The notes under the pieces are model-generated. The model had not been told where the DNA came from, did not search any database, and was given only the letters and a program-made list of their open reading frames with translations. Shown piece after piece: positions 1 to 36,340 of a DNA stretch of 64,000 nucleotides (position 1 is the stretch's first letter; every line of letters begins with the position of its first letter). Made by a program: the position numbers and the translations under genes. Location of the stretch: the NCBI GenBank assembly GCA_030704615.1, contig CM060734.1, forward strand, positions 868,001 through 932,000, in the 5' to 3' direction. The stretch comes from Takakia lepidozioides (Eukaryota > Plantae > Bryophyta).

Positions 1-1209
1 CCAGTCCCAGATTGCGATCTCTCTTTTCTCCCGCCTTTCAAGTCCAGTACGAACACACAGTGAGGAGCTTGGCAATTGGTGGAAGCGACATGTATAGCGA
101 TGAAATATCGCAACAAAGCAATTAGCCGCATTGGAATGACAGCAAGTCAGGACGACTTCAAACGGCAAAGCGTGGACTTGTTAGCGGTGCGGGACAATTG
201 GAGGGGACTCCGGACAACCTATGACTCAGTGGCAGGGTCAAAGACCCCAGAGCCATCACCGGGATTTGATTTCCAAATATACCACAAAATATGTGTGTAG
301 TGAAAATACGACGAATGGCGAGAAGCGCAACGTTTTACCACCGATGGAGCTGAGAATTTACAGGCTGATACGGGGTATATAATTGTAGTTTGTCACTAAG
401 TTTGGTGATTTATGGAGCTGATTAGCAGCAGGGCCAAATTATTGAGTCGACGGCACTCACAAGGCCTATTATTTGCATTTCTACTTCTTGGATGGATGAA
501 AAATCCTGGAATTCGCCTTGAGGAGCTGGATGGATGAAATGACAACTCGCGCCAACTCCAATTGGATGGATGAAAAGACAGCTTTCATTTGCCTCTAAGA
601 CTTTTCATCCATGTGGAATAGTATATTATAGATCCTCCAAAGAAACAACAGTTTAATGAATATTTTCCGTTAGTCTATTAGGCACAAGTATAAAAGAGGG
701 GGCAAGGCTTCTCTTATTCTTCATCTAGCTCATTTGCTTAGTTTCCTCTTGCTTGTTGTTGTAGTGTTTGCTAGCTTTTGGCTTGAGGAGGGGCTAGATC
801 CTAGGGAGTGAAGCTTGAAGCTCCCTAGTTAGATAGGATTCTTGTAAGCTAAGGCAAAGTGGCCTAGCTTGTGGGCCTTTGAGCCATTTTCATTTGTGAA
901 GGAAGAGGACAATTTCATGTGGAGGAAAGTGACTTGAGGACGAGTAGGAGGGGCTGGTATGGACTTATGGATGAGAGCCCAAGTGGAGGCCGCATAGAGT
1001 ACCATTACTTGAGTCGATAGAGCATCCCAAGCACTCTCGCATAGAAAGGTTGATCCCATCTTACCATTTTCACCATTTGTGTATGTGATTCATTTATTTT
1101 CCAAGCAAAGCTTGAAGTTGAAAATCTGATTTAGACTCTTCAAAAGAGGAGAGTGCATTGTGGAATCCCATTATTTCATGTCTAGAAGTGACAAGGGGAA
1201 GACCCCATA

Positions 1210-1528
1210 GTCTTGGCCCACCCACCACGGCCCCAATGGACCGTGATGAGTCCCAAGACTCCCCACGACTCTCACCACAAGGTCTCAGCCCTATGGTGAG
1301 TCCTATGCCACCCCCACTAAGACCCACTAAGCTACCACCACCCCTCGTGGAACCACCCCCACCGCACCGGTGTGCGGGGCTCCACCTAGTGAGTGCCTCT
1401 GCTTCCTTGAGTGCCTTGGGCACTCAAGGGTGCTTCAGCCCCCATACCTATTGTTGCCACTGCCCCCACCATAGGGGCAGCCCCTCTTGTGTCCCAACCC
1501 CCTGCCCTCAAGGCAAAGGGCCGCGACA
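1210..1528 (-). mobile_element. Truncated LTR fragment of the gypsy chromovirus family
   Basis: Matches the U3 half of the LTRs at 2040-2763 and 17816-18542; ends in the LTR terminus ...gggccgcgaca at 1528. Confidence 0.85.
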
Positions 1529-2039
1529 CTTACACTTGAGATCTTCTATAACAGCTCACATTAGATGGCAGGTTGATTATCTGACGCATTGTGTCCAGTG
1601 CCGGTATTTTGCAAACCATTACATGATCCGCAGAGAGCATTGTAATTATTGCAACCAATCTCCTCCACCAAAATTCCAGAGGAACAGATCCTAGACTTAA
1701 ACGTAGATTATTTTGCCAACAATTAGGAAAAGATTTTTTCAATTACCAAGAAGAACAGTTCAAGTAACAACGTCTGAAGAAAAAATGGAAGAAACTTCGA
1801 TTAATCAACCCATAGAGCACTTGAATATACATTTGAACGGACAAGACTCTAAAGTTCTGAATCCTCAATATCATCTCTATCTGTAGGCCCGACCAAACCC
1901 AGTAGCCCGACATCTAATCCACCGTTGAGTCCGAGAGGTTCAATGGCGCAATCGCAACCACCTCCGGCACCTCCGGATATCCCAATCGTGGTGCCAGCAG
2001 GTTTGGCTCCATTACCACTACCGGGTCACTAGCCTTGGT

Positions 2040-2763
2040 TGTCGCGGCCTTTTGCCTTGAGGGCAGGGGGGTCGGGACACATGAGGGGTTGCCCCTGTGG
2101 TGGGGGCAGCGGCGGCGATAGGTATGGGGGGCTGAAGCACCCTTGAGTGCCCAAGGCACCCAAGGAGGCGGAGGCGCTCACTAGGTGGAGCCCCGCACAC
2201 CGGGTTGCGGTGGGGTGGCTCCACAAGGGTGGTGGTAGCTTAGCGGGACTTAGTGGGGTGGCATAAGACTCACCATGGGGGCGGAGACCTCGTGGTGGGA
2301 GTCGTGGGGAGTCTTGGGACTCATCACGGTCCATAGGGGCCGTGGTGAGTGGGCCAAGACTCACCGCGACTCATCACCGGGAGTCGAGGGTTTTCGTGGT
2401 GGTTCGCCATAAAATGGCATGGCTGGTTGTGAAACCCCCGCGGACAGCTACAGAAGTATATATAGGGAGTAGTAACCCCGAGAACGGTGCAAGCCCGTTG
2501 GTGACCAAAAACTAGTGAGTAAGCGAGCGAGCCGGAAAGCGACCAAAGAGTGGGGAGCTGTTCCGGACTGCCACTACCAAAGGGAATTCCCGCTGGTTCC
2601 AAATCGGCGGAGGGTTCTTTGGGAGAACAAAGGGGGGCCGTTATGCCCCGGTGAGCAGCCGAAGCTCCAAGTTGGCCCGGCGGCCAGGTTGGGAGTCAGG
2701 CGCGCGCATCAAAGCGAGTAACTATGACTTGAGGGGGAGCTTACCGAAGTGAGGTGCGCGACA
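2040..2763 (+). repeat. 5' LTR (~724 bp) of gypsy copy 1
   Basis: TGTCGCG...CGCGACA termini, followed by the primer-binding site. Confidence 0.93.
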
Positions 2764-2765
2764 CT

Positions 2766-2777
2766 TGGTATCAGAGC
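2766..2777 (+). promoter_or_regulatory. Primer-binding site (tRNA-iMet)
   Basis: TGGTATCAGAGC 2 nt after the LTR; variants at about 7513 (+) and 17802-17813 (-). Confidence 0.92.
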
Positions 2778-2818
2778 TTAGAGTTCAGTATGCGATCGAC
2801 CTTGGGATTGGCCTCATC

Positions 2819-5800
2819 ATGGGGTTGGGCAAGCCGAAGCGAAAGCGGAACGGCCCAAAAGATGATGATCCTGGTGAGCCCGATGGGGGCGACGTGTCAC
2901 CGAGGCGGCCGTTTGAGGAAGCGATGCATGTTTCCGAAAACGAGGCCGCTCAAGAGCGGGAGGAATCCAAGGAGTCGGAGCCCGAGGAATCCTTGAGAGC
3001 TCCGACAAACCAAGAGATGCCTCCCATGCCGGCAGCCTTTGGGAAGGGTTGTTGGCGCAGTTTGGCGGGACGTTGAAAAACGTGTTGAAGGCGGCTAATG
3101 CCACTTCCACTAAGGCAAAGTTTAAGGTGAAGCCTAAGGAACCCGACACCTTCGAGGGCGTCCGAAATCGGAAGGCACTCAACACCTGGCTCCTGGAGCT
3201 AGAGCAGTACTTCCGGGCGGCCAAGTTGAGTGACGAGGATCGGGTGGAAGTGGCTCCCACCTATTTGAGGGGCTATGCTCAACAATGGTGGCAGAAACGC
3301 CTTCACGACCGAGGTCCAAACCCGGAAACCTTGAACTGGAGTGGGTTCAAGGAATTGATGAAGAGATAGTTTGTGCCCCTCAACGCGTCCTGGCTTGCCC
3401 GAGACAAGATGAGGAATTTGAAGCAAACAGATGACATTCGGGGGTATGTCCAGGCTTTCAATGTGCTGTTGCTCAAAGTCGCGGACATGGCAGAACCAGA
3501 AATGGTCTTCAACTTTGTGGCGGGACTGGCCCCATGGGCCAGGCGGAAGTTGGAGGAGAAGCCACCCAAGACTTTGAACGAGGCAATTGAGAGGGCTGAA
3601 TGTTTCTCGGATGTCCCTAGGGGTGAGAGACAAGGCCATACGGAGCTGAACCACAAGAAGACCTGGCGGGAAGGTGACTCCTCCCGACCGGAAAAGAAGT
3701 GGGATAGGCCACGCGGCGACAATGGCATGTGGAAATCGAAGGGATGGCCTTTACACGTCAAGGCGGCACCCGGTGCTTCGAAAGGAAAAGCGGGTGGAGC
3801 GGCTTATGGCGGACAGAAGGTGACCTTTGATGGAGTGTGTTTCAATTGCGGGGAGCTCGGGCACATGGCCAAGAAGTGCACGAAACCTCGACAATTGAAC
3901 ATGACTCGGGCAACCACGGAGCTGTCGGAAGATACCATCAGTCGCTTGATGGAAGCGGTGGTCGCCAGGACTTGCAAGGTAGGCAACTATTCTTGTGAGT
4001 TGTATCAGGAAACTGGCGCCCTACGTAAAGGGAGTCAGTTATTGTTCGTGGATGGGATAATATCCGGAACTAACGTGTCGTTGTTGGTGGACACAGGAGC
4101 GTCGCACTCCTTCATGACGCCGGCGGCGGCGCGAAAGTTGGGACTCCCGACAAGTGACGTGGGGGCCTCTATTGAGGTGCGTTCTGCCAAAGGAGAACCA
4201 CAGTTGACGACAAAGTTGGCGTTTGATGTTCCTCTTCAACTAGGGAGTTGGGAGGGACGTGAGAACTTCACCATCTGCGAGATCGATGGAGTAGATCTCA
4301 TTTTGGGGATGACTTTTTGAGCAAATCCGGAGCGGTCATAGATGGCCGCAAGAGAGTAGTCACGCTGCCTTGTGGGAATGGTAGCGAGGTCTTACGAGTG
4401 TCGGAAACGCCCAAATCCGTGGGAGGGCGAATAAAACCTTCTGTCAGCAAGGGAGTGGGCCGTGGAGGAGGCACACAAGCCCCAGTTTTTGCTTTACATT
4501 AGAGAAGTGAAAGGAGAGGCGATGGGGAGCCGAGCCCAGATTGGATCAAGGGGATTTGGAGAAATACCAGGATGTGATGCCAGAGGATTTACCAAGCGGC
4601 TTGCCACCACGAAGAGGAGTTGACCACAAGATTGAGGTGACACCGGGAACAGAACCGCCTGCCAAGGCACCCTACCGGTTGAGCCACAGGGAGTTGGTCG
4701 AGCTGAAGACTCAGCTCAAGGATCTAATGTCAAAGGGGTACATCCGGCCGAGTAAGTCACCTTACGGAGCCCCGGTGCTATTCGCAGACAAGAAGGATGG
4801 GACGCTGCGGATGTGTGTCGATTACAGGGCTTTGAATAAGGTGACTATCAAAAATCGGTACCCTTTGCCAAGGATCGACGACCTCTTCGATCGGTTGGCA
4901 GGAGCGAAGTATTTCAGCCGGATCGACTTGCGCTCCGGCTATCATCAATTCGGGTGGCGGAAGGAGATGAGGAGAAGACCGCGTGCAGGACAAGGTATGG
5001 TTCATATGAGTTCTTGGTGATGCCTTTTGGGCTCACCAATGCACCAGCGACATTTAGCACGCTGATGAACAGCCTTTTCCAGGAGTGGTTGGATGACTTT
5101 GTGATCGTGTACATCGACGACATCTTGGTGTACTCGAAAACAAAGGAGGAGCACCTGGAGCACCTCAAAAGGGTGTTCCAAAAATTACGAGAAGGGAAGC
5201 TGTATGCCAAAGCTTCAAAGTGCGAATTCGGGGTCACAAAAGTGGAGTTCCTGGGGCATGTGATTACACAGGATGGGATCAAAATGGATGACAGAAGGTG
5301 AGGGTGATCTTGGACTGGGAGCCTCCGACTTCGGTCCCGGGAGTGCGATCCTTCCTAGGACTCGCCTCCTATTACCGGAAGTATGTGAGAAATTTTGCCA
5401 AGATCACGGGGCCGTTGTCGGACCTTCTGTGTAAATCCAAAGTCTGGGTATGGAACACATTTTGTGGCCAAGCTTTTGGTGAATTGAAGCACCGGATGGC
5501 GGAAGCTCCAGTCTTGAAAATCCCGGAGTTCGATCGTCCATTCATACAGATGCGTCGGACTTTGCGATTGGGGGTGTACTTATGCAAGATGGACGTCCAG
5601 TGGCTTACGAAAGTAAGAAACTGAATGAAGTGGAGCGACGGTGGCCGACGCACAAAAAAGAGATGAAGGCGGTGGTGCATTGCCTTGAGCTTTGGCGCCA
5701 CTATGTTGGTTCCAACCCAGTGAAGGTGTTCACGGACAATGTCACAGTGAAGTATTTTGCCACGCAGCCCAAGTTGTCCCCAAAACAACTTAGGTGGCAA

Positions 5801-6847
5801 GATACTTTGGCGGTGTTCGACGTGGATATCCAGTACAAACCGGGACGGGACAATGTGGTGGCCGATGCTTTAAGTAGAAAGCAGCAGCTCTTGTTGGTGT
5901 ACAAGGGTGAGACGGCGCTCCAAAGGAAGATCCGGAAGGCTTGCCGGAAGGATGAGCTGGCGAAGTCCGTGATGCAGGACTTGAGGATGGGGGTTAAATC
6001 GCAGTTCCACTTGCAAAATGGACTGCTCCGGTATAAGCAAAAACGTCTCTACGTGCCAAAGGGAGGGATCAGAGATAGCCTCTTGAGAGAATGCCATGAT
6101 AGCCCGCTTGCGGGCCACGGCGAAGCCAAGCGCACTGCGGCACTCCTGAAGAAAGAGTATTTCTGGCCCAAACTGAGGGAGGAGGCAGAGGAGTATGTCA
6201 AGACATGCACCACATGCCAACAAAACCGGAGCGAGTACAAAAAGCAAGCGGGGCTGTTACAACCCTTGTCGATTTCAAAGGGGACTTGGGAAAGCGTCTC
6301 GATGGATTTCATGACTGCTATGCCGCTGTCAAAAGGATTTGATGCAATCATGGTGGTGGTGGATAGGTTCAGTAAAATGGGCCATTTCATCCCCACCAAG
6401 GAGACGGTAACGGCGCAAGAGACAGGGCGACTTTACTTCGCCCACGTCTTAAAGCATCATGGAGTCCCGAAGGATATAATCTCGGACCGCGATCCAAAGT
6501 TTACGAGTAAATTTTGGAGGGCACTTTGGAAGAAGATGGGGACGAGGCTGAAGATGAGCACCACCTTCCGACCTACGACCGACGGCCAAACCGAAAGAGT
6601 GAATTCCGTAGTGAAGCAGATCTTGCGGAATTACGTGTCGGCAGACCAAACAGACTGGGTGGAACACTTAGACGCGGCAGAGTTCTATTATAATAACACA
6701 GAACACTCCGCAACGGGAGTTTCCCCTTTCGTATTGGTCTATGGAAAAGCACCTCTGGTGCCGACAAGTTGGGCCGCCCAGGACGTTGAGGAACCGGCAG
6801 TAGCGGCGGTACTGGAAGAACGCGAGCGTTTGTTGAAGCTCGCAAAG
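2819..6847 (+). pseudogene. gag-pol of Ty3/gypsy chromovirus copy 1 (gag, zinc knuckle, protease, RT, RNase H, integrase), 3'-truncated
   Basis: CFNCGELGHMAKKC knuckle, [10 protein letters not shown] protease, YIDD RT, integrase HHCC and DDE motifs. Frameshifts and a TAG at 3367; breaks off before the chromodomain. Confidence 0.95.
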
Positions 6848-7510
6848 TGGCAGTGGCAGCGATAGGTACGGGGGGCTGAAGCACCCTTGAGTGCCCAAGG
6901 CACTCAAGGAGGCGGAGGCGCTCACTAGGTGGAGCCCCGCACACCGAGTTGCGGTGGGGGTGGCTCCACAAGGGGGGGTGGTAGCTTAGCGGGACTTAGT
7001 GGGGGTGACATAGGACTCACCATAGGGCGGAGACCTAGTGGTGGGAGTCGTGGGGAGTCTTGGGACTCATCACGGTCCAATGGGGCCGTGGTGGGTGGGC
7101 CAAGACTCACCGCGACTCATCACCGGAAATCGAGGGTCTTCGTGGTGGTTCGCCATAAAATGGCATGGTTGTTTGTGAAACCCCCGTGGACAGTCACAAA
7201 AGTATAGATAGGGAGTAATAACCCCGAGAATGGTGCAAGCCCGTTGGTGACCAAAAACTAGTGAGTAAGCGAGCGAGCCAGAAAGCGACCAAGGAGTGGG
7301 GAGCTATTCCGGACTGCCATCTACCAAAGGGAATTTCCACTAGGCCCAAATTGGTGGAGGGTTTGTTGGGGGAGTAAAGGGGGACCGTTATGTCCTGGTG
7401 AGCAGCCGAAGCTCCGAGTTGGCCCGGCGGCCAGGTTGGGAGTTAGGCGCGCGCATCAAAGCGAGTAACTATGACTTGAAGGGGAGCTTACCGAAGTGAG
7501 GTGCGCGACA
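6848..7510 (+). repeat. 5'-clipped LTR shared between two tandem internal regions
   Basis: Homologous to about 2105-2763; ends in gtgcgcgaca and is followed by the PBS variant TGGTATCAAAGC. Confidence 0.9.
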
Positions 7511-9100
7511 CTTGGTATCAAAGCTTAGAGTTCAGTACGCGATCGTCCTTGGGATCGGCCTCATCATGGGGTCGGGCAAGCCGAAGCGAAAGCGGAACGG
7601 CCCAAAAGATGATGATCCTGGTGAGCCCGATGGGGGCGACGTGTCACCGAAGCGGCCATTTGAGGAAGCGATGCATGCTTTTGAAAGCGAGGCCACTCAA
7701 GAACGGGAGGAATCTGAGGAGTCGGAGCCCGAGGAATCCCTGAGAGCTCCGACAGACCAACAGATGCCTCCCATGCTAGTAGCCTTTTGGGAAGGGTTGT
7801 TGGCGCAGTTTGGTGGGACGTTGAAAGACGTGTTGAGGGCGGCTAATGCCACTTCCACTAAGGCAAAGTTTAAGGTGAAGCCTAAGGAACCCGGCACCTT
7901 CGAGGGCGTCCGAAATCGGAAGGCACTCAACACCTGGCTCTTGGAGCTAGAGCAGTACTTCCGGGCGGCCAAGTTGAGTGACGAGGATCGGGTGGAAGTG
8001 GCTCCCACCTATTTGAGGGGCTATGCTCAACAATGGTGGCAGAAACGCCTTCACGACCGAGGTCCAAACCCGGAAACCTTGAACTGGAGTGGGTTCAAGG
8101 AACTTATGAAGAGATAGTTTGTGCCCCTCAACGCGTCCTGGCTCGCCCGGGACAAGATGAGGAATCTGAAGCAAATGAATGACATTCGGGTATATGTTTA
8201 GGCTTTCAATGTGCTGTTGCTCGAAGTCACGGATATGGCAGAACCAGAAATGGTCTTCAACTTTGTGGCGGGACTGGCCCCATAGGCCAGATGGAAGTTG
8301 GAGGAGCCACCCAAGACTTTGAATGAGGCAATTGAGAGGGCAAAGACAAGGCCGTACGGAGCTGAACCACAAGAAGACCCGGCGGGAGGGTGACTCATTT
8401 CGACCGGAAAAGAAGTGGGATAGGCCACGCGGCGACAATGGCACGTGGAAATCGAAGGGAGGGCTACACGCCAAGACGACACCTGGTGCTCCGAAAGGAA
8501 AATCAGGTGCGACGCCTTATGGCGGACAAAAAGCGACCTTCGATGGAGTGTGCTTCAATTGTGGGGAGCCCGGGCACATGGCCAAGAAGTGTACGAATGC
8601 CTGACAATTGAATATGACTCGGGCAACCACGGAGTTGTCCGAAGCTTCTATCAACCGCTTGTTGGAGGCGGTGGTCACCAAGACTTGCAAGGTAGGCAAC
8701 TACTCTTGTGAGTTGTATCAGGAAACTGGCGCCTTGCGTAAAGGGAGTCAGTTAATGTTTGTGAGTGGGATAATCTCCGGAGCTAACGTGTCGTTGTTGG
8801 TGGACACAGGAGCGTCGCACTCCTTCATGACACTGGCAACGGCACGGAAGTTGGACTCCCGACAAGTGCAGTGAGAACCTCTATTGAGGTGCGTTCTGAT
8901 AAAAGAAAACCACAATTGGCGACGAGGTTGGCGTTCGATGTTCTTCTTCAGCTCGAGAGTTGGGAGAGACGTGAGAACTTCACCATTTGCGAGATCGAGG
9001 CAGTGGATCTCATTTTGGGGATGACCTTTTTTAGCAGATCCGGAGCGGTCATAGATGGCCGCAAGAGAGTAGTCACGCTACCGTGTGGGAATGGTGGCGA
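7511..9100 (+). pseudogene. Degenerate gag-protease of gypsy copy 2, truncated
   Basis: Near-identical translation to copy 1 with multiple stops; ends at [11 protein letters not shown], where unrelated sequence begins. Confidence 0.92.
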
Positions 9101-10614
9101 AAGTTGGGGATTTCTCCCGGGCACCTCTCCAAGGGACACCAGTCGACCTTTTGGTAGTTCGACCCGAGTCCACGTAATTGAAGATTACATCATCCTCCAC
9201 AGGCTTGCAGGTGGAGTCAATGTGAGCTGCAAGGTCCCTCAACTGGAACTCAGCAATACCAGGAGAAAGAGTGTCCTTCCGCACCCTCACTAGGCACAAA
9301 GCTTCGAACACCCAAGTCTGCCAAAAATCACGAAGAGAGCATGAGCAAAAAGACACAACCTACTTTTGACACTTTATGAAGAACCACGAAACTTTAATTC
9401 AAAGGAACGAACTCACTTTCTGCCCTGGGAACTCGCCCTTCGTAAGAGGCAGAGCGTTGATGCATGTCCAAGTTTTGATGACACGAAACCCGGAAGCTTT
9501 CATGTAGCTGAAAAGAGTTCTCCGTGCTGACATGTCATTTGACTGCATGAGAAGAAGACCCCCCGAGTCAGAAAGAAATTTGTTGCTGAATGAGAAAGCC
9601 CACTGCCAGTAACGAGAATCCAATTTGTTCCAAGTGGGGGTTGCATTGGAAGGCAACACATCATGGACAGACAAACCGTCAGGAATGTCTAGCACCACAA
9701 GGTCAGTGGCGTATGCCTGCTGAACTCCATTCACCCAATCTGGCCTTTTGTGACCTATAACCAAAAACAAGAGACAGTGTCACAAGCCTAATCCAAATTC
9801 AACACGAAATCAATCTCGTTGACAAGCCAGAATGAGTTGCCAAAACAAAATCATTCATACCACAGTTAAGACATATGTGCTTACCTGAGTAAGGAACGAA
9901 ACAAGCATGTCCCATGATTTCGACGGTACCCCTTTGAATGTGGACTTCCTGGATTCCATCACTGCCAGAAAACTTTCATTCATCATCTTACGATGGAACT
10001 GGCCCAAAACCCTAGATGGATGTTCTCTCGCCTCGAAAGGCTACTCCCTCGACTTTGTTGTTCTCCTATCCCTCCTAGTTGGAGAAGGGTGTCTTTCAGC
10101 GACCTCTGATAGGCCCTGTTCCTGCAGAGTTGCACTCTTCCCCTTCCCCTTCGGATCCTCGGCAATCTTCCCCTTCCGTTTTGGAGTAGCAGATTTCTCA
10201 GGCTCTTTTGCAGCCAGAGCTTGAATGATTTTGTCCTGAATGTCTTTGTCAGCAAGTGGGGCAAGTGCCGCGGCGTTGTTGTTAAGGTTTCTCAAAACCA
10301 CTTCATCGAATGGTGTGTCCTGTTTTGGCAGATCGAGGTACCACCCACAGTCTCTGAAGTGCGCCCTACTCCAGTCTCTGGCAATACCAGCCGTGTACAT
10401 TGTCTTGTCGTTGGAGGGGTCAGCCCATGAATAGATGAAGTCAGGGTCATCGCTAAGGTACTTTCCCAGTATGAGGACATGTTACATGTACCTGAATCAC
10501 TCACACCCAAAACCCAGACAGTCATTCGATCTGAATAGCACACAGATCACATCTCACGAGAAGGGTATTGGAATGGAGATCAGTAACTCGTTGAAACTAA
10601 CATTTATCAGCCAG

Positions 10615-11406
10615 AATCAACCTTGCGTTGACACAATGTTGATTCCAGCTGAAAAGAAAAACCCCAAACCTGCTGAAGTGCACTTTCAACGAGCACTTAC
10701 GAGAGGGAAAGCCCATTATCCTAACCCATCGCATGCACAACATGGAATCCCCAATCAACCTTGCGTTGACGCAAAGTAGATTGGCGGATCCACATATGAT
10801 AATGTTGCATGAAAAAAGACAGTGATTGACAAGCGGAATTCAACATTGCGTCAACGCAAGGTTGTTTTCATGAACAAAAGAAATGAAAAACAGTGCTAGA
10901 AAACAACCATCTAAAGATCTGTTTGTATGGATATTCAACCTTGCGTTGACGCAAGGTTGAATACCTCTGCTGGAAAAACCTGTCCATGGTATTTGATAAC
11001 TTTAACTTTCCTACAATTGTATGGAAATCGGGCTATTTCTGTGGGACATTTCTAGCAATCCATACCGTCAAACAACGTTGCGTCAACGCAAGGCTGTTTG
11101 GTGGTACAGTGTCAGCTCTAACGACATTTCACTCCAAACAGACTTTATGTTCATCCTGGCAGCAACGGAACTGGAAACGACAGCAAATAACAGCCCAAGA
11201 ATACATAAGACCTACATAGCCTGGCCCTTCATCAACCTTGCGTTGACGCAAGGTTGATTTGCCTTGCGGATTTTGCCCTTTAACATGCAAAAAATGACAT
11301 CATTGGATCCCCCAAGTACAGGAAAATGAAACCAAAACCACTTGTACATGAAGATCAAGACACTGGCGTGGCAGCCGGGATACAAGCTTGCATTAACGCA
11401 ATGTTG
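10615..11406. repeat. Cluster of 7 family-1 palindromes (CAACCTTGCGTTGACGCAAGGTTG-like)
   Basis: Copies near 10615, 10751, 10841, 10932, 11069, 11231 and 11383, with dissimilar spacers. Confidence 0.9.
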
Positions 11407-11576
11407 CTCGGCTGCACGTCCAGAGCCCTCAGACCTCCCTCAAAACCTGCATATTCGTAATTCTCCATAGAAAACACGACACAAGAATACTGAAACATAC
11501 ACTTCTAGTACCACATTTGTTTCTTGGAGGTCACACCTGTACAACACTCGTTTCATTGCTTGCTCGCTGTTGTGTT

Positions 11577-14500
11577 TGTCGCGCACCTCACTTCGGTAAG
11601 CTCCCCTTCAAGTCATAGTTACTCGCTTTGATGCGCGCGCCTGACTCCCAACCTGGCCGCCCGGGCCAACTTGGAGCTTCGGCTGCTCACCGGGACATAA
11701 CGGTCCCCCTTCGCTTCCCTCTAAACCCTCCACCTATTTGGGACTAGGAGAATTCCCTTTGGTAGATGGCAGTCCGGAACAGCTCCCCTCTCTTTAGTCG
11801 CTTTCCGGCTCGTTCGCTTACTCACTAGTTTTTGGTCACCAACGGGCTTGCACCGTTCTCGGGGTTACTACTCCCTATATATACTTCTGTAGCTGTCCGC
11901 GGGGGTTTCATAACCAGCCATGCCATTTTATGGCGAACCACCACGAAAACCCTCGACTCCCGGTGATGAGTCGCGGTGAGTCTTGGCCCACTCATCACGG
12001 CCCCTATGGACCGTGATGAGTCCCAAGACTCCCCACGACTCCCACCACGAGGTCTCTGCCCCCATGGTGAGTCCTATGCCACCCCCACTAAGTCCCGCTA
12101 AGCTACCACCACCCCTTGTGGAGCCACCCCCACCGCAACCCGGTGTGCGGGGCTCCACCTAGTGAGCGCCCCGCCTCCTTGAGTGCCTTGGGCACTCAAG
12201 GGTGCTTCAGCCCCCCATACCTATCGCTGCCGATGCCCCCACCACAGGGGCAGCCCCTCATGTGTCCCGACCCCCTGCCCTCAAGGCAAAGGGCCGCGAC
12301 ACACACCCCTACCAACAGGGAGTCGATGTCCTCATCGACTTGTCCATTTTGTAGAAACAAACATCCAAGTTGTGGCGTCCCACATCAAGGAGTTTGTTTC
12401 CGCACCATGGCGTCCCATGGCAAAGAACCAAACCCCACACTTGACTCTACTCTCCACTAGCTAGTTCGGCCGACTTCCTCCAAGTCCCGGCCAAGGGTGG
12501 AGCCTCTCCAGCTCCTCCCAGTGCACTCTTCTTGGCCTACTTCAAGGCCAAGGAACGATCCTCCCGAGGATCGAATCGCCTTACTGCAACAACATTGCTT
12601 GCGATCCCTCATGATGCCGCTTTTGGCATCACCTTGAGCAAGGGTTCCCTGGAACCCTCTTTGACTAGGAAGATAACCTTGAACCAACCGTGCGCCCAAT
12701 CACTACAATTGGGTCCGCCTTGGAATGCTGGCCTGAGGTACGGGAACACGCCGAAGCCGCACTACGACTTCGTCCCGAGGCTACACGATTATAGTACGTG
12801 AACGGAAGCACGTAGCTTCCGCGTTAGCCCGCACTACAAGGCAACCCCCTCGGTAGCGCAGTTATAGTACGCGCACGCGCCAGGTGCGCACTAGCACGTG
12901 AACTCCCAAAGAAGTCGCAAGTTTCCTTGCCCCTTGGATGGGGGTCACCCGATTTCGGCACTACGCAAACACACGATTAACCCAATTTACCTCTCCCACT
13001 TTTATAAGCTAGCATGCATTCTACACACTAGCCAACCATACCATGCATCACCATTCCAAACAAAATAGGACGCACAACATTTGGAACCCATTTCCTTTAT
13101 AACAAATTTTTGTACAATACAAGTTTTTGCAATCGGATTCCTAAGCTAGCTAAGCCGGGCTAAGCATGCATTTCCTCCCCCACGCTCCAAGGTTGATGTC
13201 CCCATCAACGTTTCTTCCGCTTTTGAGGTCGCCCTTCGAAAGCTGCAACGCCTCGGATGCGTTTCCCATTTCTGAGGCACGCACCCAAGATGCCTCCACA
13301 TGATGATAGCCCTTCCATTTGACGAGATACTCCGTTTCTCGGTTCTTGAACCTCCTCGACTTAAGTATTGCCTCCACCTCGTACTCAGGTTCATTTTCAT
13401 GATCCAACAGCATAGGTGGCGGACGCAACACTTGATGCCGATTCGGACGCGCTTCATCTTTGAAGTAAGGCTTCAAAAGGGAGACATGGAATACTGGGTG
13501 CACCTTGCTGTTTGCCGGCAGCTCCAATTCATACACATCCTCATTCATAACCTTCCGAATGCGAAAGGGTCCCGCATACGGAGGTACGAACTTCGGACTC
13601 ACTTCCGGAGGTAGTCGGAAATTCTTGATGTTCAACCAGACCTCTGTGCCTGCCTCAAACTTCACTTCCCTCCGCTTCCGATTCGCCTGCCTTTCATACC
13701 GTTTCCTAGCTTTGGCAATGTTGTACTTTGCGAGCTTCAACAAACGCTCGCGTTCTTCCATACCGCCGCTACTGCCGGTTCCTCAACGTCCTGGGCGGCC
13801 CAACTTGTCGGCACCAGAGGTGCTTTTCCATAGACCAATACGAAAGGGGAAACTCCCGTTGCGGAGTGTTCTGTGTTATTATAACAGAACTCTGCCGCGT
13901 CTAAGTGTTCCACCCAGTCTGTTTGGTCTGCCGACACGTAATTCCGCAAGATCTGCTTCACTACGGAATTCACCCTTTCTGTTTGGCCGTCGGTCGTAGG
14001 TCGGAAGGCGGTGCTCATCTTCAGCCTCGTCCCCATCTTCTTCCAAAGTGTCCTCCAAAATTTACTCGTAAACTTTGGATCGCGATCCGAGACAATATCC
14101 TTCGGGACTCCATGATGCTTTAAGACGTGGGCGAAGTAAAGTCGCCCTGTCTCCTGCGCCGTTGCCGTCTCCTTGGTGGGGATGAAATGGCCCATTTTAC
14201 TGAACCTATCCACCACCACCATGATTGCATCGAATCCTTTTGACAGCGGCATAGCAGTCATGAAATCCATCGAGACGCTTTCCCAAGTCCCCTCTGGAAT
14301 CGGCAAGGGTTGTAACAGCCCCGCTTGCTTTTTGTACTCGCTCCGGTTTTGTTGGCATGTGGTGCATGTCTTGACATACTCCTCTGCCTCCTCCCTCAGT
14401 TTGGGCCAGAAATACTCTTTCTTCAAGAGTGCCGCAGTGCGCTTGGCTCCGCCGTGGCCCGCAAGCGGGCTATCATGGCATTCTCTCAAGAGGCTATCTC

Positions 14501-17500
14501 TGATCCCTCCCTTTGGCACGTAGAGACGTTTTTGCTTATACCGGAGCAGTCCATTTTGCAAGTGGAACTGCGATTTAACCCCCATCCTCAAGTCCTGCAT
14601 CACGGACTTCGCCAGCTCATCCTTCCGGCAAGCCTTTCGGATCTTCCTTTGGAGCGCCGTCTCGCCCTTGTACACCAACAAGAGCTGCTGCTTTCTACTT
14701 AAAGCATCGGCCACCACGTTGTCTCGTCCCGGTTTGTACTGGATATCCACGTCGAACACCGCCAAAGTATCTTGCCACCTAAGTTGTTTTGGGGACAACT
14801 TGGGCTGCGTGGCAAAATACTTCACCGTGACATTGTCCGTGAACACCTTCACTGGGTTGGAACCAACATAGTGGCGCCAAAGCTCAAGGCAATGCACCAC
14901 CGCCTTCATCTCTTTTTCGTGCGTCGGCCACCGTCGCTCCACTTCATTCAGTTTCTTACTTTCGTAAGCCACTGGACGTCCATCTTGCATAAGTACACCC
15001 CCAATCGCGAAGTCCGACGCATCTGTATGAATCTCAAATGGACGATCGAACTCCGGGATTTTCAAGACTGGAGCTTCCGCCATCCGCTGCTTCAATTCAG
15101 CAAAAGCTTGGCCACAAAATGTGTTCCATACCCAGACTTTGGATTTACACAGAAGGTCCGACAGCGGCCCCGCGATCTTGGCGAAATTTCTCACATACTT
15201 CCGGTAATAGGAGGCGAGTCCTAGGAAGGATCGCACTCCCGGGACCGAAGTCGGAGGCTCCCAGTCCAAGATCGCCCTCACCTTTCTGTCATCCATTTTG
15301 ATCCCATCCTGTGTAATCACATGCCCCAAGAACTCCACTTTCGTGACCCCGAATTCGCACTTTGAAGCTTTGGCGTACAGCTTCCCTTCCCGCAACTTTT
15401 GGAACACCCTTTTGAGGTGCTCCAGGTGCTCCTCCTTTGTTTTCGAGTACACCAAGATGTCGTCGATGTACACGATCACAAAGTCATCCAACCACTCCTG
15501 AAAAAGGCTGTTCATCAGCGTGCTAAAGGTCGCTGGTGCATTGGTGAGCCCAAAAGGCATCACCAAGAACTCATATGAACCATACCTTGTCCTGCACGCG
15601 GTCTTCTCCTCATCTCCTTCCGCCACCCGAATTTGATGATAGCCGGAGCGCAAGTCGATCCGGCTGAAATACTTCGCTCCTGCCAACCGATCGAAGAGGT
15701 CGTCGATCCTTGGCAAAGGGTACCGGTTTTTGATAGTCACCTTATTCAGAGCCCTGTAATCGACACACATCCGCAGCGTCCCATCCTTCTTGTCTGCGAA
15801 TAGCACCGGGGCTCCGTAAGGTGACTTACTCGGCCGGATGTACCCCTTTGACATTAGATCCTTGAGCTGAGTCTTCAGCTCGACCAACTCTCTGTGGCTC
15901 AACCGGTAGGGCGCCTTGGCAGGCGGTTCCGATCCCGGTATCACCTCAATCTTGTGGTCAACTCCTCTTCGCGGTGGCAAGCCGCTTGGTAAATCCTCCG
16001 GCATCACATCCTGGTATTTCTCCAAAATCCCCTTGATCCAATCTGGGCTCGGCTCCCCATCGCCTTCTCCCTTCACTTCTCTAATGTAAAGCAAAAACTG
16101 GGGCTCGTGTGCCTCCTCCACGGCCCACTCCCTTGCTGACAGAAGGTTTATTCGCCCTCCCACGGATTTGGGCGTTTCGACACTCGTAAGACCTCGCCAC
16201 CATTCCCACATGGCAGCGTGACTACTCTCTTGCGGCCATCTATGACCGCTCCGGATTTGCTCAAAAAGGTCATCCCCAAAATGAGATCCACTCCATCGAT
16301 CTCGCAGATGGTGAAGTTCTCACGTCCCTCCCAACTCCCCAGTTGAAGAGGAACATCAAACGCCAACCTTGTCGCCAACTGTGGTTCTCCTTTGGCAGAA
16401 CGCACCTCAATAGAGGCCCCCACGTCACTTGTCGGGAGTCCCAGCTTTTGTGCCGCCGCCGGTGTCATGAAGGAGTGCGACGCTCCTGTGTCCACCAACA
16501 ACGACACATTAGTTCCGGATATTATCCCATCCACGAACAATAACTGACTCCCTTTACGCAGGGCGCCAGTTTCCTGATACAACTCACAAGAATAGTTGCC
16601 TACCTTGCAAGTCCTGGCGACCACCGCTTCCACCAAGCGACTGATGGTATCTTTCGACAGCTCCGTGGTCGCCCGAGTCATGTTCAATTGCCGGGGCTTT
16701 GTGCACTTCTTGGCCATGTGCCCGGGCTCCCCGCAATTGAAACACACTCCATCAAAGGTCGCCTTCTGTCCGCCATAAGCCGCTCCACCCGCTTTTCCTT
16801 TCGAAGCACCGGGTGCCGCCTTGACGTGTGAAGGCCCTCCCTTCGATTTCCACGTGCCATTGCCGCGTGGCCTATCCCACTTCTTTTCCGGTCGGGAGGA
16901 GTCACCTTCCCGCCGGGTCTTCTTGTGGTTCAGCTCCGTACGGCCTTGTCTCTCACCCCTAGGGACATCCGAGAAACATTCAGCCCTCTCAATTGCCTCG
17001 TTCAAAGTCTTGGGTGGCTTCTCCTCCAACTTCCGCCTGGCCCATGGGGCCAGTCCCGCCACAAAGTTGAAGACCATTTCTGGTTCTGCCATGTCCGCGA
17101 CTTCGAGCAACAACACATTGAAAGCCTGGACATACCCCGAATGTCATCTGTTTGCTTCAAATTCCTCATCTTGTCCCGGGCAAGCCAAGACGCGTTGAGG
17201 GGCACAAACTGTCTCTTCATCAATTCCTTGAACCCACTCCAGTTCAAGGTTTCCGGGCTTGGGCCTCGGTCGTGAAGGCGTTTCTGCCACCATTGTTGAG
17301 CATAGCCCCTCAAATAGGTGGGAGCCACTTCCACCCGATCCTCGTCACTCAACTTGGCCGCCCGGAAGTACTGCTCTAGCTCCAGGAGCCAGGTGTTGAG
17401 TGCCTTCCGATTTCGAACGCCCTCGAAGGTGCCGGGTTCCTTAGGCTTCACCTTAAACTTTGCCTTAGTGGAAGTGGCATTAGCCGCCTTCAACACGTCT

Positions 17501-18542
17501 TTCAACGTCCCGCCAAACTGCGCCAACAACCCTTCCCAAAAGGCTGCCGGCATGGGAGGCATCTCTTGGTTTGTCGGAGCTCTCAAGGATTCCTCGGGCT
17601 CCGACTCCTCGGATTCCTCCCGCTCTTGAGCGGCCTCGTTTTCGGAAACATTCATCGCTTCCTCAAACGGCCGCCTCGGTGACACGTCGCCCCCATCGGG
17701 CTCACCAGGATCATCATCTTTTGGGCCGTTCCGCTTTCGCTTTGGCTTTCCCGACCCCATGATGAGGCCAATCCCAAGGACGATCGCGTACTGAACTCTA
17801 AGCTCTGATACCAAGTGTCGCGCACCTCACTTCGGTAAGCTCCCCTTCAAGTCATAGTTACTCGCTTTGATGCGCGCGCCTGACTCCCAACCTGGCCGCC
17901 CGGGCCAACTTGGAGCTTCGGCTGCTCACCGGGACATAACGGTCCCCCTTCGCTTCCCTCTAAACCCTCCACCTATTTGGGACTAGGAGAATTCCCTTTG
18001 GTAGATGGCAGTCCGGAACAGCTCCCCTCTCTTTGGTCGCTTTCCGGCTCGTTCGCTTACTCACTAGTTTTTGGTCACCAACGGGCTTGCACCGTTCTCG
18101 GGGTTACTACTCCCTATATATACTTCTGTAGCTGTCCGCGGGGGTTTCATAACCAGCCATGCCATTTTATGGCGAACCACCACGAAAACCCTCGACTCCC
18201 GGTGATGAGTCGCGGTGAGTCTTGGCCCACTCATCACGGCCCCTATGGACCGTGATGAGTCCCAAGACTCCCCACGACTCCCACCACGAGGTCTCTGCCC
18301 CCATGGTGAGTCCTATGCCACCCCCACTAAGTCCCGCTAAGCTACCACCACCCCTTGTGGAGCCACCCCCTACCGCAACCCGGTGTGCGGGGCTCCACCT
18401 AGTGAGCGCCTCCGCCTCCTTGAGTGCCTTGGGCACTCAAGGGTGCTTCAGCCCCCCATACCTATCGCTGCCGATGCCCCCACTACAGGGGCAGCCCCTC
18501 ATGTGTCCCGACCCCCTGCCCTCAAGGCAAAGGGCCGTGACA
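11577..18542 (-). mobile_element. Full-length Ty3/gypsy chromovirus (Galadriel-like), copy 3
   Basis: LTRs at 17816-18542 and 11577-12301 differ at only a handful of positions. 5-bp TSD GTGTT at 11572-11576 and 18543-18547. tRNA-iMet PBS and gag-pol with chromodomain. Confidence 0.97.
13150..17760 (-). CDS. gag-pol polyprotein with C-terminal chromodomain (a few single-base frameshifts)
   Basis: ORFs 17002-17814, 16148-17116, 13737-16211 and 13150-13761; [27 protein letters not shown]; chromodomain [11 protein letters not shown]...YLVKWKGY...SW. Confidence 0.93.
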
Positions 18543-20263
18543 GTGTTGGTTTTTGAATTCGTAGGATCTGGAGATTCTTTTGTCTCTCTCAAACTCCCTG
18601 AAGAAGCAGTTGTTCCGGACAGCGAGCTTCCATCTCCTGATATAGGCCTCAAGTGTGATCCGGGGGCAAGCCATCTGGATTTTGTAGTCTGCCATTGACT
18701 CCCCAAATGCAGCCACCGCTCGTTTTTCCAACTGCAGCAAGGAAGATCATAAGAATTTGGGAGAGAGTACGAATGTGCACAATCGTTTGAAAAGGGTTTT
18801 GTGAATGTCTTACCTGGCTCTAGAAGGTTGCTTTGTGTAGCCACTGGTCGAATGTGTGGTCGCTAACAACTTTTATTGCTTGTGTCTTCGAGTCCCTCTC
18901 AGGAGTTGGGAAAATGTTGGTGTCTCTCACAAGTGGATCCGAATTCCAGATCTCCAACCACCTGATTTTGGTTGCATTGTCCACCATTGATATGGAAAGG
19001 CGATGCAGTTTCTCTTGGGTCATTTCTGGTTTGGAGCCATACTTGTCATAATGTGCTTTCACCTGCTCCAGAAATTCCGTGCCAAGACTTGGATCTGCTA
19101 TGCGGATTTGTTTGTCGAACGCACTCATGAGGTTCTTCCTTTGATTGTTCATCTCGAATCTCATAATGTCCTCAAGCCCAGTTGCAGACCTCTGCTCTTC
19201 TGTGTGGGAAACATAGTACTCTGCTTTCGCCTTTAAGCCAGTCTCTGCTATTTCTTGCTGCATACATTACAGGGAGAAAGGATCAAACACTGGTGTTTCT
19301 TGATAAAATTTACACTAGCAACAAACAAACAGATGTGAAGAAGCTTACCGTGTACATGTAGTCAAGAAAAAGCCTCCCTTGTCAGGCTGTACCATGTGCT
19401 TGTCTTTTTTTCAGCGCACCTCTTCATCTGCTGAGGACTGAGCACGTTCGTGAATGACTCCAGTGGCATCAACCCTATCTTCTGGATACGGAATAGAGTG
19501 TGGCAGAGATTGGTCGTCACATGGGAGGTTTCATTGGACCTGAAAAAACCTTCAACTCATAAGATGATTTCGAATTGTGAAAACGCAGATCGGGTGGGAA
19601 CAAGGTTGGTAACTTACTTGTTTATGTCGTGCATGGCTGTCAAGAGCTGCGTGACATGTCCTTTGTGGTCGAGTACCATGGAAACCACGCTCCAATGCCA
19701 TTCGATCTCGTCCGAGTGCAAGCTTGAAATGTAATCCATCCAGGCAAGCAGTCTATGGTTCCCATCCCAGACAAAAAACATCTTTCCCAAAAATGCTTTT
19801 GTCGAGGCCTTTTTGGACAGCTTAAACTCGAATTCCCTGTTTACATCCCGCTAGCATGCATCCCAACTTTGCTCTATGTCCTCTGTTACAAGACACTCCT
19901 CTCCTTTCGTGTTCACAGTGGATACATAAAACACTGCAAATCCCTTAACATAGTCGTGAATAAAATCATTCTTCAACTTCGTGATGTCGTTTCTCAATGC
20001 GGGTCGAACCGCGGGCATGGAGATCATCCTGCATAGTGGGATAAGCAGGTTTCCGCCGGGAACCTCCATCGACAGAATCACCTTCGAGAAGTTCACTTTC
20101 TGCCCACCTATAACCTCCTCGGCCTTGTCTTCATAGTGTTCCTCAAATGAATCTTCATCACCATCACCTTCTGCCACTGCCACATCTCCCCTCACGAATT
20201 TCCTTTTTCTTCTCCTCTACAGAGAATGAATATCCTTGTGAGTGACAGATTGAGCTCCCATGG

Positions 20264-20870
20264 ATCAACCTTGCGTTGACGCAAGGTTGATTGATAGGGT
20301 TGTAGCTTAGTCTGAAATGCATACCGGAACAGTCCAGTGAACCCACTAAATGCCTTGCGTTGACACAAGGTTCTTTTGGGGGCTTCACATAATCAACTTT
20401 CCCTACCTTGCGGTTCATGACACGGGACTTCGGATGCTGGGAATGGACAGAAGAGGCATCCAAATCAGCCTCGCGTCAACGCAAGGTTGATTTGAGTGCT
20501 GCATCTGCTTCGTTTCACCTTCATAAACATACACTTTAGAGGTCGAGATCAACCTTGCATTGACGCAATGTCGAGTTCTCAGTTTGGCGTTCAACAAACA
20601 AAAAAAAGCAAATGGCAAAACAAACTACAACCTCTGCTTTCTTCTTGGCACTTGATGATGCGTCGGGAGCATTCATCTTTTCCATGGGGTCTGGAGGCAG
20701 CATGCTGCCAAGCAGATCCGGCAGGTGGGAATGAACATAAGAGGCACTCAAATCAACCTCGCGTCAACGCAAGGTTGATTCGAGTGCTGCATCTGTATCG
20801 TTTAGTGCCCAAACATACACTTTGGAGGTCAACATCAACCTTGCGTTGATGCAAGGTTGATGTCGACCTC
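20264..20870. repeat. Cluster of 6 family-1 palindromes in the 5' introns of gene A
   Basis: Copies near 20264, 20352, 20462, 20548, 20751 and 20834. Confidence 0.9.
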
Positions 20871-21015
20871 TCTGCTTAGCATGGAACAGACAAAAAAAGG
20901 AAAAGGCAAATGAGGGTTGATAACCACCTCTGGTTTCTTCTTTGCACTTGATGATGCTCCGGAGGCATTCAGCTGCGTGAGGTCTGGAGGCAGCATGCTG
21001 CCAAGCAGGTCCCGG
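20461..21015 (-). repeat. ~290-bp tandem duplication of an exon plus palindrome-bearing intron
   Basis: DLLGSMLPPD...ASSSAKKK.E is encoded twice, and each unit carries two palindromes. Confidence 0.85.
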
Positions 21016-22070
21016 TGGTGGGAAACAGCGGCAGACGGCAGCGTTCCCGCGTCCTTCTCTCCTCCCTGCTCTCTCATGATCTGGTTCTCCACTCGCAGCG
21101 CTTCCTCCCGAGCCCAGCTGACTTCCTCCTCCTCCCCTCCCTCTATTGGAGGTTGCTCTTTGGTCGCCTCCGGAATCGCTTCAAGGCTTTCCTCTCCAAA
21201 CTGTGGATGCAGACTCGGGTTTTGCCCTTCGTCCTCATCTCCGACGGAGGTTTCTTCTCCCATTCTAAGTTCCCATCTCGCCTTCCTCATCCTCTCCTTA
21301 GCGTGTGCCCTTTGCTTGTTTGATGTGAAATAAAGTGTTCTTCGACGCTTTCTTCTCCCTCGGGATGGGGTCACCACCTTTGCAAAATCCAGGGTTGCAA
21401 TGAGAAGAAGGACAAGAAGGAAAAAAAAAAGGCACTACGGGCATGTTCACCGCAAGGCCATCCACGCCAAGATGATCGCTCGAAACGACCTAAGCGCCAC
21501 ATGCTCATTCCACATGCATGGCGGACACGTGTCCAACTATCCGTTATGAATATCACCGGAAATCATTTGTTTCTCATTCACCGAAATTCGTTCGGGTCGG
21601 CCTCTCATCCGCAAAAGTTCATTATTGGGTATCCGCTTTTGGGATGATTCAGAGGAATGTGCAGTTGGTACAGTTGTACAGCGATGCAATTGCCGTTAAC
21701 ATTGAATGGAAATGGGCACCTCATCTGGCCTCTCTGACATGACAGCAAAATGGCGGCTCTGTCAGTCAAAATTGCGGAATTCGTTGTCCAAGGCACTGGT
21801 GGTACACCTGTGAAAAAACAGTTGGATTCTTTAATTGGGGTTGACATTATCCACTCCGCATTTGGGCACTCTGTGACCATTCACTTGGTTCGCATGTCCA
21901 CACATTTCTTTGATGTGCCGAACCGCGTTAGGAGACCTGCATGCGAGAGCGACAACTGCAATTGTGTGTAAGGACGTCTTGTATACAGCCCAAAAACTCC
22001 ACTCTAGTACAACCTGCAATCAGAAGCAACATTGGACTATGAACTGTGCGCTTTGAAGCAACATTGATAG

Positions 22071-25000: not shown

Positions 25001-25567
25001 TCCACTAACCGTGTGGCCTGTGAAGATGGGCACAGGTCTCACTCGCCAAGAGATCGCAATGCTGGAAGAGGCAGATTTCTCCCTAGCCAGACATTCCATT
25101 GCACGTGGAGGTGCTTCAAGTTCAAGCGGTTCACGGGTACCTCCGCCTGACGCTCACTTGTGGCCAACCAGACGGAATGGGAAGCTGGTTCGACGATTCC
25201 CTCCAACCGCAGAACACTACGGCAAAATCGAGTCCGCGAGAATGCTTCACGCTCATGTTGCGGGAACAATGGAAGTGCCTGATCCAGGGTATGGTCGGGT
25301 CTTCACCATGATCTCATCACATCTGTGCTGTAGGACAGGACGTACGACATCACTGTTTCCAATTTTCCCAATTGCACCTGTCCTGATTTTGTTGGTATGC
25401 TTTCAAGTAGTTTGGGAAAGAGAGGAAAGTTCATACCGTGCAGACATCTTTACTTCGTCTTCTTGAGAAGGATGGTTTGTGATCCAAAGCGCGACTTCTT
25501 CATTCACCAAGCCACTATGAGTTTCAACGAAGTCAACACACTTCTACAGTGGGATACAAGCCCATAG
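22071..25567 (+). pseudogene. MULE/Mutator-like DDE transposase with GCM/WRKY-like zinc domain and C-terminal SWIM finger
   Basis: DGHPWCRTKTSN...CNGHLKC...CKFC...HFGFHNH; MFD; FMAD...CLFH; NLA(K for E)TVH after an intron at about 24092-24186; SWIM CTCPDF...PCRH, stop at 25567. Frameshifts and stops present. Confidence 0.82.
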
Positions 25568-25764
25568 ACAACATGCACTTGACATGAAGAAATATGTGTT
25601 TTCCTTGACTACAACTTGTAATGGAATGAATGTTCAAGTCCAGTGTCTCTCAATGTATGTCCTCTAACATCTTCGCTATATGTGGGTCAACGCATTTGTC
25701 GCATTGGTTTGTCATTCACTTTTCATTAGCAAACACAAGAAACTACCTTCAGATAGACAGATGA

Positions 25765-26005
25765 TCAAATCAACCTCGTGTTAACACGAGGTTGACTTGA
25801 AGTTCTCCAAATCCACCTTGTGTCGACACAAGGTTGATTTTAGTTCTAAGAAAACAACATCATGTCAACACAAGGTTGATTTGGAGATGTTCAAATCAAC
25901 CTCGTGTTGACACAAAGTTGATTTTTGTTGCAGGAAAACAACCTCGTGTTAACACAACGTTCATTTTGGTTCTAGGAAATGAAGCTCTTGTTAACAGAAG
26001 GTTGA
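25765..26005. repeat. Subterminal array of ~6 family-1 palindromes at ~43-bp period
   Basis: caacctcgtgttaacacgaggttg, ccttgtgtcgacacaagg and similar copies near 25765, 25809, 25855, 25893, 25939 and 25985. Confidence 0.85.
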
Positions 26006-26094
26006 ACTCCAAGAAAGCCCGAAACCCTTCATCCGTTTCATCTTCATGTGGTGAAATCAGCAGTTGTAGGCTCCACGGTTATAGGCCCACCTTC

Positions 26095-36300: not shown

Positions 36301-36340
36301 TCGGAATTAGAATTTAGGGTTGGGCCTATTACCGCGGCCC

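Follow-up and report, generated by a model that had tools for sequence, protein, structure and literature searches.

Palindrome arrays occupy introns of two homologous genes, designated gene A and gene B, in the 64,000-nucleotide stretch of Takakia lepidozioides DNA that was analysed (CM060734.1, positions 868,001–932,000; hereafter the window, in whose numbering all coordinates are given), and these arrays are a real, non-random feature of the sequence. Both genes are degenerate copies of a cargo gene carried by a transposon. The palindromes appear, judging from sequence comparison, to be family-specific repeats of its introns and to be, likely though with ample room for doubt, parS-like double-stranded DNA sites for the gene's own ParB/methyltransferase-like product. 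The two copies are homologous exon by exon (~27–55% identity in the longer matches) and are accompanied by a truncated third member:

9100–21430, minus strand: gene A, eight predicted exons
27652–33113, plus strand: gene B, gene A homologue and transcribed pseudogene
26223–26563, minus strand: gene C, a truncated third ParB-fold exon

Gene A runs from a basic N-terminus through a ParB-fold exon (19617–20216) and helical exons to amino-methyltransferase-like exons (~9780 down to 9100), and is disrupted by stops, an LTR insertion, and a 3′ truncation; gene B is damaged by stops, frameshifts, and one MITE. The two insertions are:

11577–18542, minus strand: Ty3/gypsy LTR element in gene A exon 5, target duplication GTGTT (5 bp)
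29114–29784, no strand assigned: MITE-like insertion in the gene B ParB exon, 12-bp inverted ends, 3-bp duplication TTG

The gypsy element is a young insertion (LTRs 722/725 identical), and a related organism (run X6) possesses an A-type copy in which both palindrome clusters are present and the LTR element is absent. Positions 1200–9100 contain further, nested fragments of this gypsy family, one of which truncates the last exon of gene A at ~9100. The gene C fragment is an insertion target lying back to back with gene B, and no palindrome cluster was found near it between 26223 and 27660. The presence of three diverged family members within 25 kb suggests insertion into related elements. For run X1, from which 7987 contigs were placed, summed contig depth (which is not copy number) was ~8,800–75,000 over 19001–26515 compared to ~56–140 over most of gene B, which points to an A family that is much repeated and a B family that is rare. 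The remainder of the window includes three LINE-like copies with endonuclease and reverse transcriptase frames (36300–46100 and 52768–55990; the first ORF of one contains a 141-bp tandem repeat), a VTI1-type v-SNARE host gene (PF05008) whose exons (40455–40745 and 46083–47108) are split by LINE copies, an alpha/beta-hydrolase-like exon near 48816–49067, and repeated GCGACCGYCA...TGRCGGTCGC palindromes (57700–58130), after which follows a decayed non-LTR element (58300–64000) with a strong G skew, whose RNase H and reverse transcriptase frames lie on the minus strand.

The first-pass annotation had placed palindrome clusters of differing sequence in equivalent introns of genes A and B, within surroundings that do not visibly align, and had read this as the mark of binding sites co-evolving with their protein. 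The clusters are present in both genes, and two sets of sites can be added, an 11th motif B site at 32343 and an array with a 42-bp period at 25771–25965:

10619–11405, no strand assigned: seven motif A palindromes, gene A intron 5 (palindrome scan and motif matching)
20267–20858, no strand assigned: six motif A palindromes, gene A intron 1 (motif matching)
28129–28743: seven motif B palindromes, gene B intron 1, ~96-bp period
31273–31604: three motif B palindromes, gene B intron 5
32343–32364, no strand assigned: lone motif B site, gene B predicted intron 6
25771–25965, no strand assigned: A-like palindrome array 3′ of the transposase gene, five copies with a weak sixth at 25982

Motif A is 22–26 bp long with the half site TCAACCTTGCGT and a TG/CA centre, while motif B, an unrelated word, has the half site TGTGATGATCGT and a CG/TG/CA centre; the half site of the A-like array is TCAACCTCGTGT. 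A possible decayed motif A remnant, below the palindrome threshold, lies at 9830–9860 in gene A intron 6, the same place as the lone intron 6 site of gene B.

An unbiased palindrome scan of the window returned 42 matches, compared to 2–14 in 10 shuffles. Motif matching over the whole window placed 11 of 11 motif B matches inside gene B, and of 19 motif A matches (≤5 mismatches allowed) 13 fell in the two introns of gene A, five in the array at 25772–25961, and one, a 5-mismatch match, inside the LTR element. Arms were 85–87% identical within one gene, including between its two introns, compared to 30–40% for the 30-nt flanks (87% and 36%, respectively, for the gene A intron 5 sites), while the arms of A and B were only 30% alike, in agreement with the claimed difference in sequence. 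The paired introns likewise do not align, as had been noted, with local alignment scores of 20 and 22 compared to shuffle means of 21.6 and 20.7. These distributions bear on an origin of the palindromes as dispersed, independent mini-elements inserted into the introns, the outcome named in the first-pass annotation as contrary to its interpretation. Palindromic repeats of unrelated elements are indeed scattered in the loci, but within the 64 kb the elements of genes A and B contain every one of the 11 motif B matches and all but one of the 19 motif A matches, the flanks share no common element body, and in relatives the palindromes recur in the same part of the gene, such that an origin as mini-elements is extremely improbable.

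The palindromes lie in transcribed introns and would fold, and both arms change together between families, as would be expected for hairpins in pre-mRNA or single-stranded DNA that control splicing or small-RNA production. Such hairpins should tolerate G-T pairs, but G-T mismatches were not in excess of A-C mismatches in sense orientation (15 vs 12 in the window, 67 vs 68 in relatives, 82 vs 80 overall), an equality that argues for double-stranded DNA sites over RNA hairpins. Further, the asymmetric centre of the gene A sites occurs in both orientations (CA, n = 8; TG, n = 4; TA, n = 1), and an Rfam search of 9000–34000 returned no match; a hairpin function is therefore judged very unlikely. 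Simple CpG decay was rejected as the origin of the asymmetric motif A centre (central CG, 0/13; arm CG, 21/26).

The annotation had called for exon boundaries to be fixed from RNA, and this could be achieved for intron 1 of gene B, which is spliced, and not for its intron 5, which is retained:

28075–28817, plus strand: gene B intron 1, GT..AG, spliced in RNA-type contigs of X9 and X10
31241–31649, plus strand: gene B intron 5, three motif B copies, retained in RNA-type contigs
10492–11536, minus strand: gene A intron 5, predicted, GT...AG ends, splits an Arg codon

The intron 1 joint, from 28074 to 28818, is present in RNA-type contigs of two studies. Two further gene B introns are spliced, and the region from 31023 to 33113 is unspliced; the acceptor of intron 5 (31648–31649) reads AA instead of AG, which would explain its retention. 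Gene B, though broken, is well covered by RNA-type contigs of two studies, in which the MITE is read through and the last three predicted introns are kept. Intron 5 of gene A is supported by its GT/AG ends, by a break in the protein homology, and by all four relatives inspected (L001, L028, L063, and L075), in which the same codon is interrupted by an intron. One RNA-type contig of a sister copy contains the exon 6/7 joint of gene A and another ends at 10493, only a weak hint of intron 5; no RNA joint across gene A intron 1 or intron 5 occurred among the matches listed. None of the listed runs with the A element is on record as RNA, which says nothing on expression. Plant enhancers are typically located in the first intron, and gene B is transcribed, such that the sites could be intronic enhancers that recruit a host transcription factor or chromatin protein. 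A fixed host factor is not favoured by family-specific arms that are 30% alike between A and B in one genome, and we regard recruitment of a host factor as quite improbable.

The search for relatives confirmed 255 loci, of which 80 were kept and grouped into 37 clusters, with one locus counted per cluster; the exon order of genes A and B was repeated in these loci. Cluster positions were counted for 31 lineages after six of the 37 clusters with too little upstream DNA were left out. In a de novo search, 20 of 31 lineages had at least three palindromes of one family at 200–1700 bp upstream of the ParB match, compared to 8 of 225 other 1.5-kb bins; of these eight, three reflect a further array, built from the same word, in intron 6 and two an insertion in L011. 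The enrichment upstream of the ParB exon (p = 6e-16) is overstated by this p value, as the lineages are related, and 11 of the 31 lineages had no cluster in this position. The upstream stretch is proven to be intron 1 for gene B only, and one relative (L003) has a donor site 5′ of the stretch; for the other relatives we infer that it is also intron 1. The words vary by lineage (CAACTTTCGG-, CCATGTGTGT-, CTTCTCTCGG-, AAGCATTCGG-, and others) and the geometry is constant: the palindromes are of even length and have a Y-R centre, and G is the most frequent base at position −3 in eight of nine motif sets, with a G/A tie in the ninth. The L011 insertion (~4090–7505; +1324 to +4739 from the match) has CACTACTAC...GTAGTAGTG ends, an apparent 3-bp duplication, and its own 50-bp tandem palindrome array, to which arrays in L079 are related. 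Far downstream, seven loci (L016, L022, L039, L041, L056, L074, and L075) share sequence with decayed frames from ~+4200 to +10400 relative to the match, which suggests elements >20 kb with further cargo genes.

The proposed positional equivalence holds firmly for intron 1 but only weakly for intron 5, as three relatives use intron 6. Intron 5 was short in the four inspected relatives and contained no repeated palindrome family, while in L007, L016, and L075 the second array lay in intron 6. Arrays are thus fixed in intron 1, whereas a second one may be located in intron 5 (genes A and B), in intron 6, or be lacking. Between L007, L016, and L075, five of six comparisons had only modestly better conserved arms (76–88%) than the rest of the intron (71–84%), and in the remaining comparison the arms fared worse (25/32 vs 810/997). 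The 6-bp cores were less conserved in all comparisons, probably due to methyl-C decay, and in metagenome loci the palindrome cores look decayed, unlike motif A.

This modest extra conservation between subfamilies, together with the shifting second array and the tandem periods amongst the arrays (42, 51, 96, and ~288 bp), would be compatible with functionless arrays, in which a palindrome-prone seed multiplied through tandem duplication and gene conversion in introns that tolerate it. Some of the gene A intron 1 sites did arise by a tandem duplication of ~288 bp, which takes in the end of exon 1 (20438–20731 vs 20726–21024, 78% identity). Neutral drift does not readily account for conserved arms between spacers that have decayed to background, a pattern that also holds across introns 2 kb apart in the gene without its LTR element, nor for unrelated words at the same place in 20 of 31 lineages, and functionless arrays are considered unlikely. 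Arms that are kept while spacers are random, a fixed geometry, and two-fold symmetry instead fit the sites of a dimeric DNA-binding protein.

The strongest candidate for this binder is the ParB-fold protein, because the sites lie in its own gene and persist in gene B, beside which no transposase match was found, and because, in the available text on red algae, arrays accompany a ParB-like gene under an unrelated transposase. A comparison of motif and protein trees, suggested in the first-pass annotation as a check on co-evolution, yielded a partial answer. On the ParB-exon tree, loci of one motif type fall together, except for S1, which occurs in two separate parts; since kin share motif labels, this grouping demonstrates inheritance in cis and not co-evolution with a binding surface. 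Seven loci (L039, L041, L046, L050, L053, L056, and L075) have 2–4 words interleaved upstream of the match, some at fixed spacings; such interleaving of 2–4 palindromes in one intron is not simply explained by one protein.

The ParB exon, 3′ of the intron 1 array, had 508 relatives (E ≤ 0.001), of which the named ones are from Riccia sorocarpa and Adiantum, and is predicted to adopt a ParB/Srx fold. Its AF2 model (pLDDT 87.8) aligned with Caulobacter ParB (Z = 8.6, rmsd = 2.2, 93 residues), and the top 14 rows of the structure comparison were ParB, Noc, PadC, and KorB, with a weak Foldseek result (E = 0.08). The Pfam ParB family matched neither the exon nor 36 aligned relatives, Pfam returned nothing for 21 of 22 window fragments, sequence searches against solved structures gave chance matches only, a word-index search with the 5′ half of the exon had no match, and scans of viral contigs revealed no relative. 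Amongst the 36 aligned rows, many of them partial, the DGNHR motif was conserved at G (34), N (35), H (33), and R (29), and G152, N153, H154, R155, and R71 were each kept in 29–35 rows. We take DGNHR to be the Box II G-x-x-R nucleotide-binding motif of ParB, a reading that draws in part on a survey of ParB proteins (10.1101/2025.10.10.680097).

The middle region is all-helical in the Riccia model (residues 311–600) and aligned loosely with the DNA-binding part of ParB (rmsd 6.6–9.4, about 7); in this loose alignment no helix-turn-helix was identified after the ParB fold, which counts against the ParB-fold protein as binder. A homodimer prediction for Riccia residues 135–600, in which the alignment was not used and the region's own fold is uncertain, scored 0.00 and speaks neither for nor against a dimer. 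The C-terminal end is predicted to have a beta-class amino-methyltransferase-like fold. The Riccia relative P0154, one of a family whose longest Riccia members are 1191–1244 aa, matched PF01555 (N6_N4_Mtase; E = 5e-5, below the curated cut-off) and has a motif IV-like segment at 960 before a motif I-like segment at 1128, the beta-class order. The best Foldseek matches of this end were CcrM, M1.HpyAVI, and M.BceJIV, none at E ≤ 0.001. The intact catalytic (D/N/S)PP(Y/F/W) motif is absent, with DIPD in gene A, EIRD in gene B, DIPE, DVPR, NVPS, and DVPS in other loci, DLPT/DLPS in Riccia, and DVPF and DFPI in two Adiantum proteins, one of which keeps the aromatic residue of motif IV. As motif IV is degenerate and its aromatic residue is missing from the window, liverwort, and metagenome copies, the protein may bind without methylating. 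In a reading of ORFs, no ParA gene was seen among those read in the window or the recurrent ones of the loci. Identity with MpDN4MT1 was rejected, as that protein has TSPPY compared to D-[ILVF]-P-x and an N-terminal ParB fold here.

Head to head with gene A lies a transposase gene, followed by a candidate element end that interrupts the ParB exon of gene C:

22071–25466, plus strand: transposase gene, frameshifted, with GCM-like and MULE-like DDE domains
26125–26222, no strand assigned: candidate right end of the A element, six subterminal repeats GCTCACRC, terminus CACTAC inward

The GCM-like part was assigned by Atlas at 0.97 (Pfam on 12% of that cluster) and the MULE-like part at 0.94 (Pfam on 75% of that cluster). 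A Pfam search with 20 of the 60 long relatives found gave no MULE or GCM match, whereas inspection of P0249 by eye revealed D, D, CLFH, and E and a motif resembling SWIM. A DDE domain with C-x-x-H, a WRKY-GCM1-type N-terminal domain, and a terminal SWIM are described for MULEs in the available text of PMC1702500, and by its sequence the transposase appears to share this architecture. Across the 37 representative loci, 19 of which had at least 5.9 kb upstream, a transposase occurred upstream on the opposite strand in nine and downstream in none. The segment at 26125–26222 is the likely, if unproven, right end of the A element, and could instead be the end of a separate element; neither the left end nor a target duplication of the A element, which for a MULE would be 8–10 bp, was found in the window, and no element termini were fixed from the loci of relatives. 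The CACTAC terminus at 26222 is CACTA-like, which is odd for a MULE-type transposase.

These features raise an alternative in which the GCM-domain transposase itself binds the palindromes, as internal enhancers of transposition or of element transcription, and the ParB gene is a mere host. The GCM-like part is a DNA-binding domain, its gene is linked to the ParB gene in 9 of 37 loci, and the A-like array at 25771 lies behind the transposase, between it and the likely element end and outside the ParB gene, which counts against the ParB-fold protein as binder. A separate short repeat at an element end is the more usual transposase site. The likely end of the A element bears just such a different repeat, which counts for the ParB-fold protein, and the palindromes are concentrated in ParB gene introns, far from the ends. 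A 2026 preprint reports in its abstract sequence-specific activation by a Mutator transposase, but the red-algal arrays go with the ParB-like gene and an unrelated transposase, and we hold the transposase to be a doubtful candidate.

If the ParB-fold protein is the binder, a dimer of it would read the two half sites, could close on nucleotide, and might then spread over the element. The loading of ParB clamps at parS is known from bacteria, in whose canonical systems loading and sliding depend on CTP. Introns would provide places where sites multiply by tandem duplication without breaking the protein, and when the reading surface changes, a new word could spread through all arrays of a family. 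The C-terminal methyltransferase-like domain may mark or occlude the DNA of the element, and protein loaded on its own element would help it to escape host silencing, working like VANDAL/VANC, such that the copies protected by each transposon family would be those that it recognises as its own. We propose clamp loading, spreading, and anti-silencing here by analogy with these systems. In its fullest form, which we put forward as a speculative possibility, a large transposon clade of seed-free plants would employ a phage-type ParB-methylase as a nucleotide-driven clamp that loads at family-unique, intronic parS-like sites, spreads, and marks the element or shields it from 5mC silencing. Under this clamp model modification might fall on the conserved G-K-Y-R-M-C core, at adenine in GTYRAC families and at cytosine in GGYRCC families, and the variable arms could be a family barcode. 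If correct, eukaryotes would possess a ParB/parS clamp, and its families would supply naturally matched pairs of protein and site as a library. The family offers base-precise candidate sites, many natural protein-site pairs, and liverwort and fern relatives; it makes testable how transposons evade silencing without harm to the host, and could yield new sequence-specific DNA-targeting parts.

Self-recognition by a ParB-like transposon protein is already proposed for algal transposons, as far as the available texts extend. An accessory gene of the Ectocarpus element Sola1-1_Ec32 encodes a ParB-like domain and an N4C/N6A methyltransferase (1104 aa) opposite to the transposase, and the authors propose that the protein binds and modifies the DNA of its own element (available text of PMC12477816). 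The cargo gene described here shares the two domains, a similar protein size, and the opposite transposase orientation, and differs in belonging to a land-plant GCM/MULE element instead of one with a Sola transposase and in its degenerate catalytic motif; the main text of that paper lacks ‘palindrom’ and describes no target sites. The PAG3 gene of red-algal Plavaka elements (Bostrychia) is ParB-like and occurs with tandem inverted-repeat arrays for which its authors draw the parS analogy (available text of 10.1101/2025.02.11.637652). Both systems thus combine ParB-like accessory genes with repeat arrays, though PAG3 has a 2OG oxygenase fusion, arrays adjacent to the gene instead of in introns, and an EnSpm-type transposase. 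The article text covered by the literature search contained no description of the land-plant, intronic, family-specific form; supplements and reference 50 of the Ectocarpus paper may mention land-plant members.

Phage fusions of ParB and an N6N4-methyltransferase (available text of 10.1101/2025.10.10.680097 and PMC4738411) have the same domain order and are the likely origin of the cargo gene. With bacterial ParB/parS and Noc, in the sources available, it has in common the ParB/Srx fold, a Box II-like motif, and repeated palindromic sites, and differs from ParB/parS as a spliced eukaryotic transposon gene with family-specific 22–26 bp sites and no ParA seen. Marchantia MpDN4MT1a/b are likewise beta-class amino-methyltransferases of a seed-free plant, here 4mC methyltransferases with a TSPPY motif encoded by host sperm genes, in a text that as available lacks ‘ParB’ (10.1101/2021.02.12.428880), compared to the D-[ILVF]-P-x motif and N-terminal ParB fold of the cargo family. 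For Arabidopsis VANDAL/VANC, anti-silencing, marked by a sequence-specific loss of 5mC due to the protein, was shown by experiment, and VANC motifs, which change with the protein, occur in introns, in intergenic regions, and in terminal regions (main text of PMC5735166). No exon of genes A or B matched any Pfam family, VANC-type ones included, and VANC motifs are 8–9 nt, with ‘palindrom’ absent from that main text, compared to the 22–26 bp palindromes here. The two systems nevertheless share a Mutator-like element, an accessory gene, and family-specific motifs that multiply by tandem repeats, and the turnover of motifs between families found here is a feature that the available PAG3 text does not describe.
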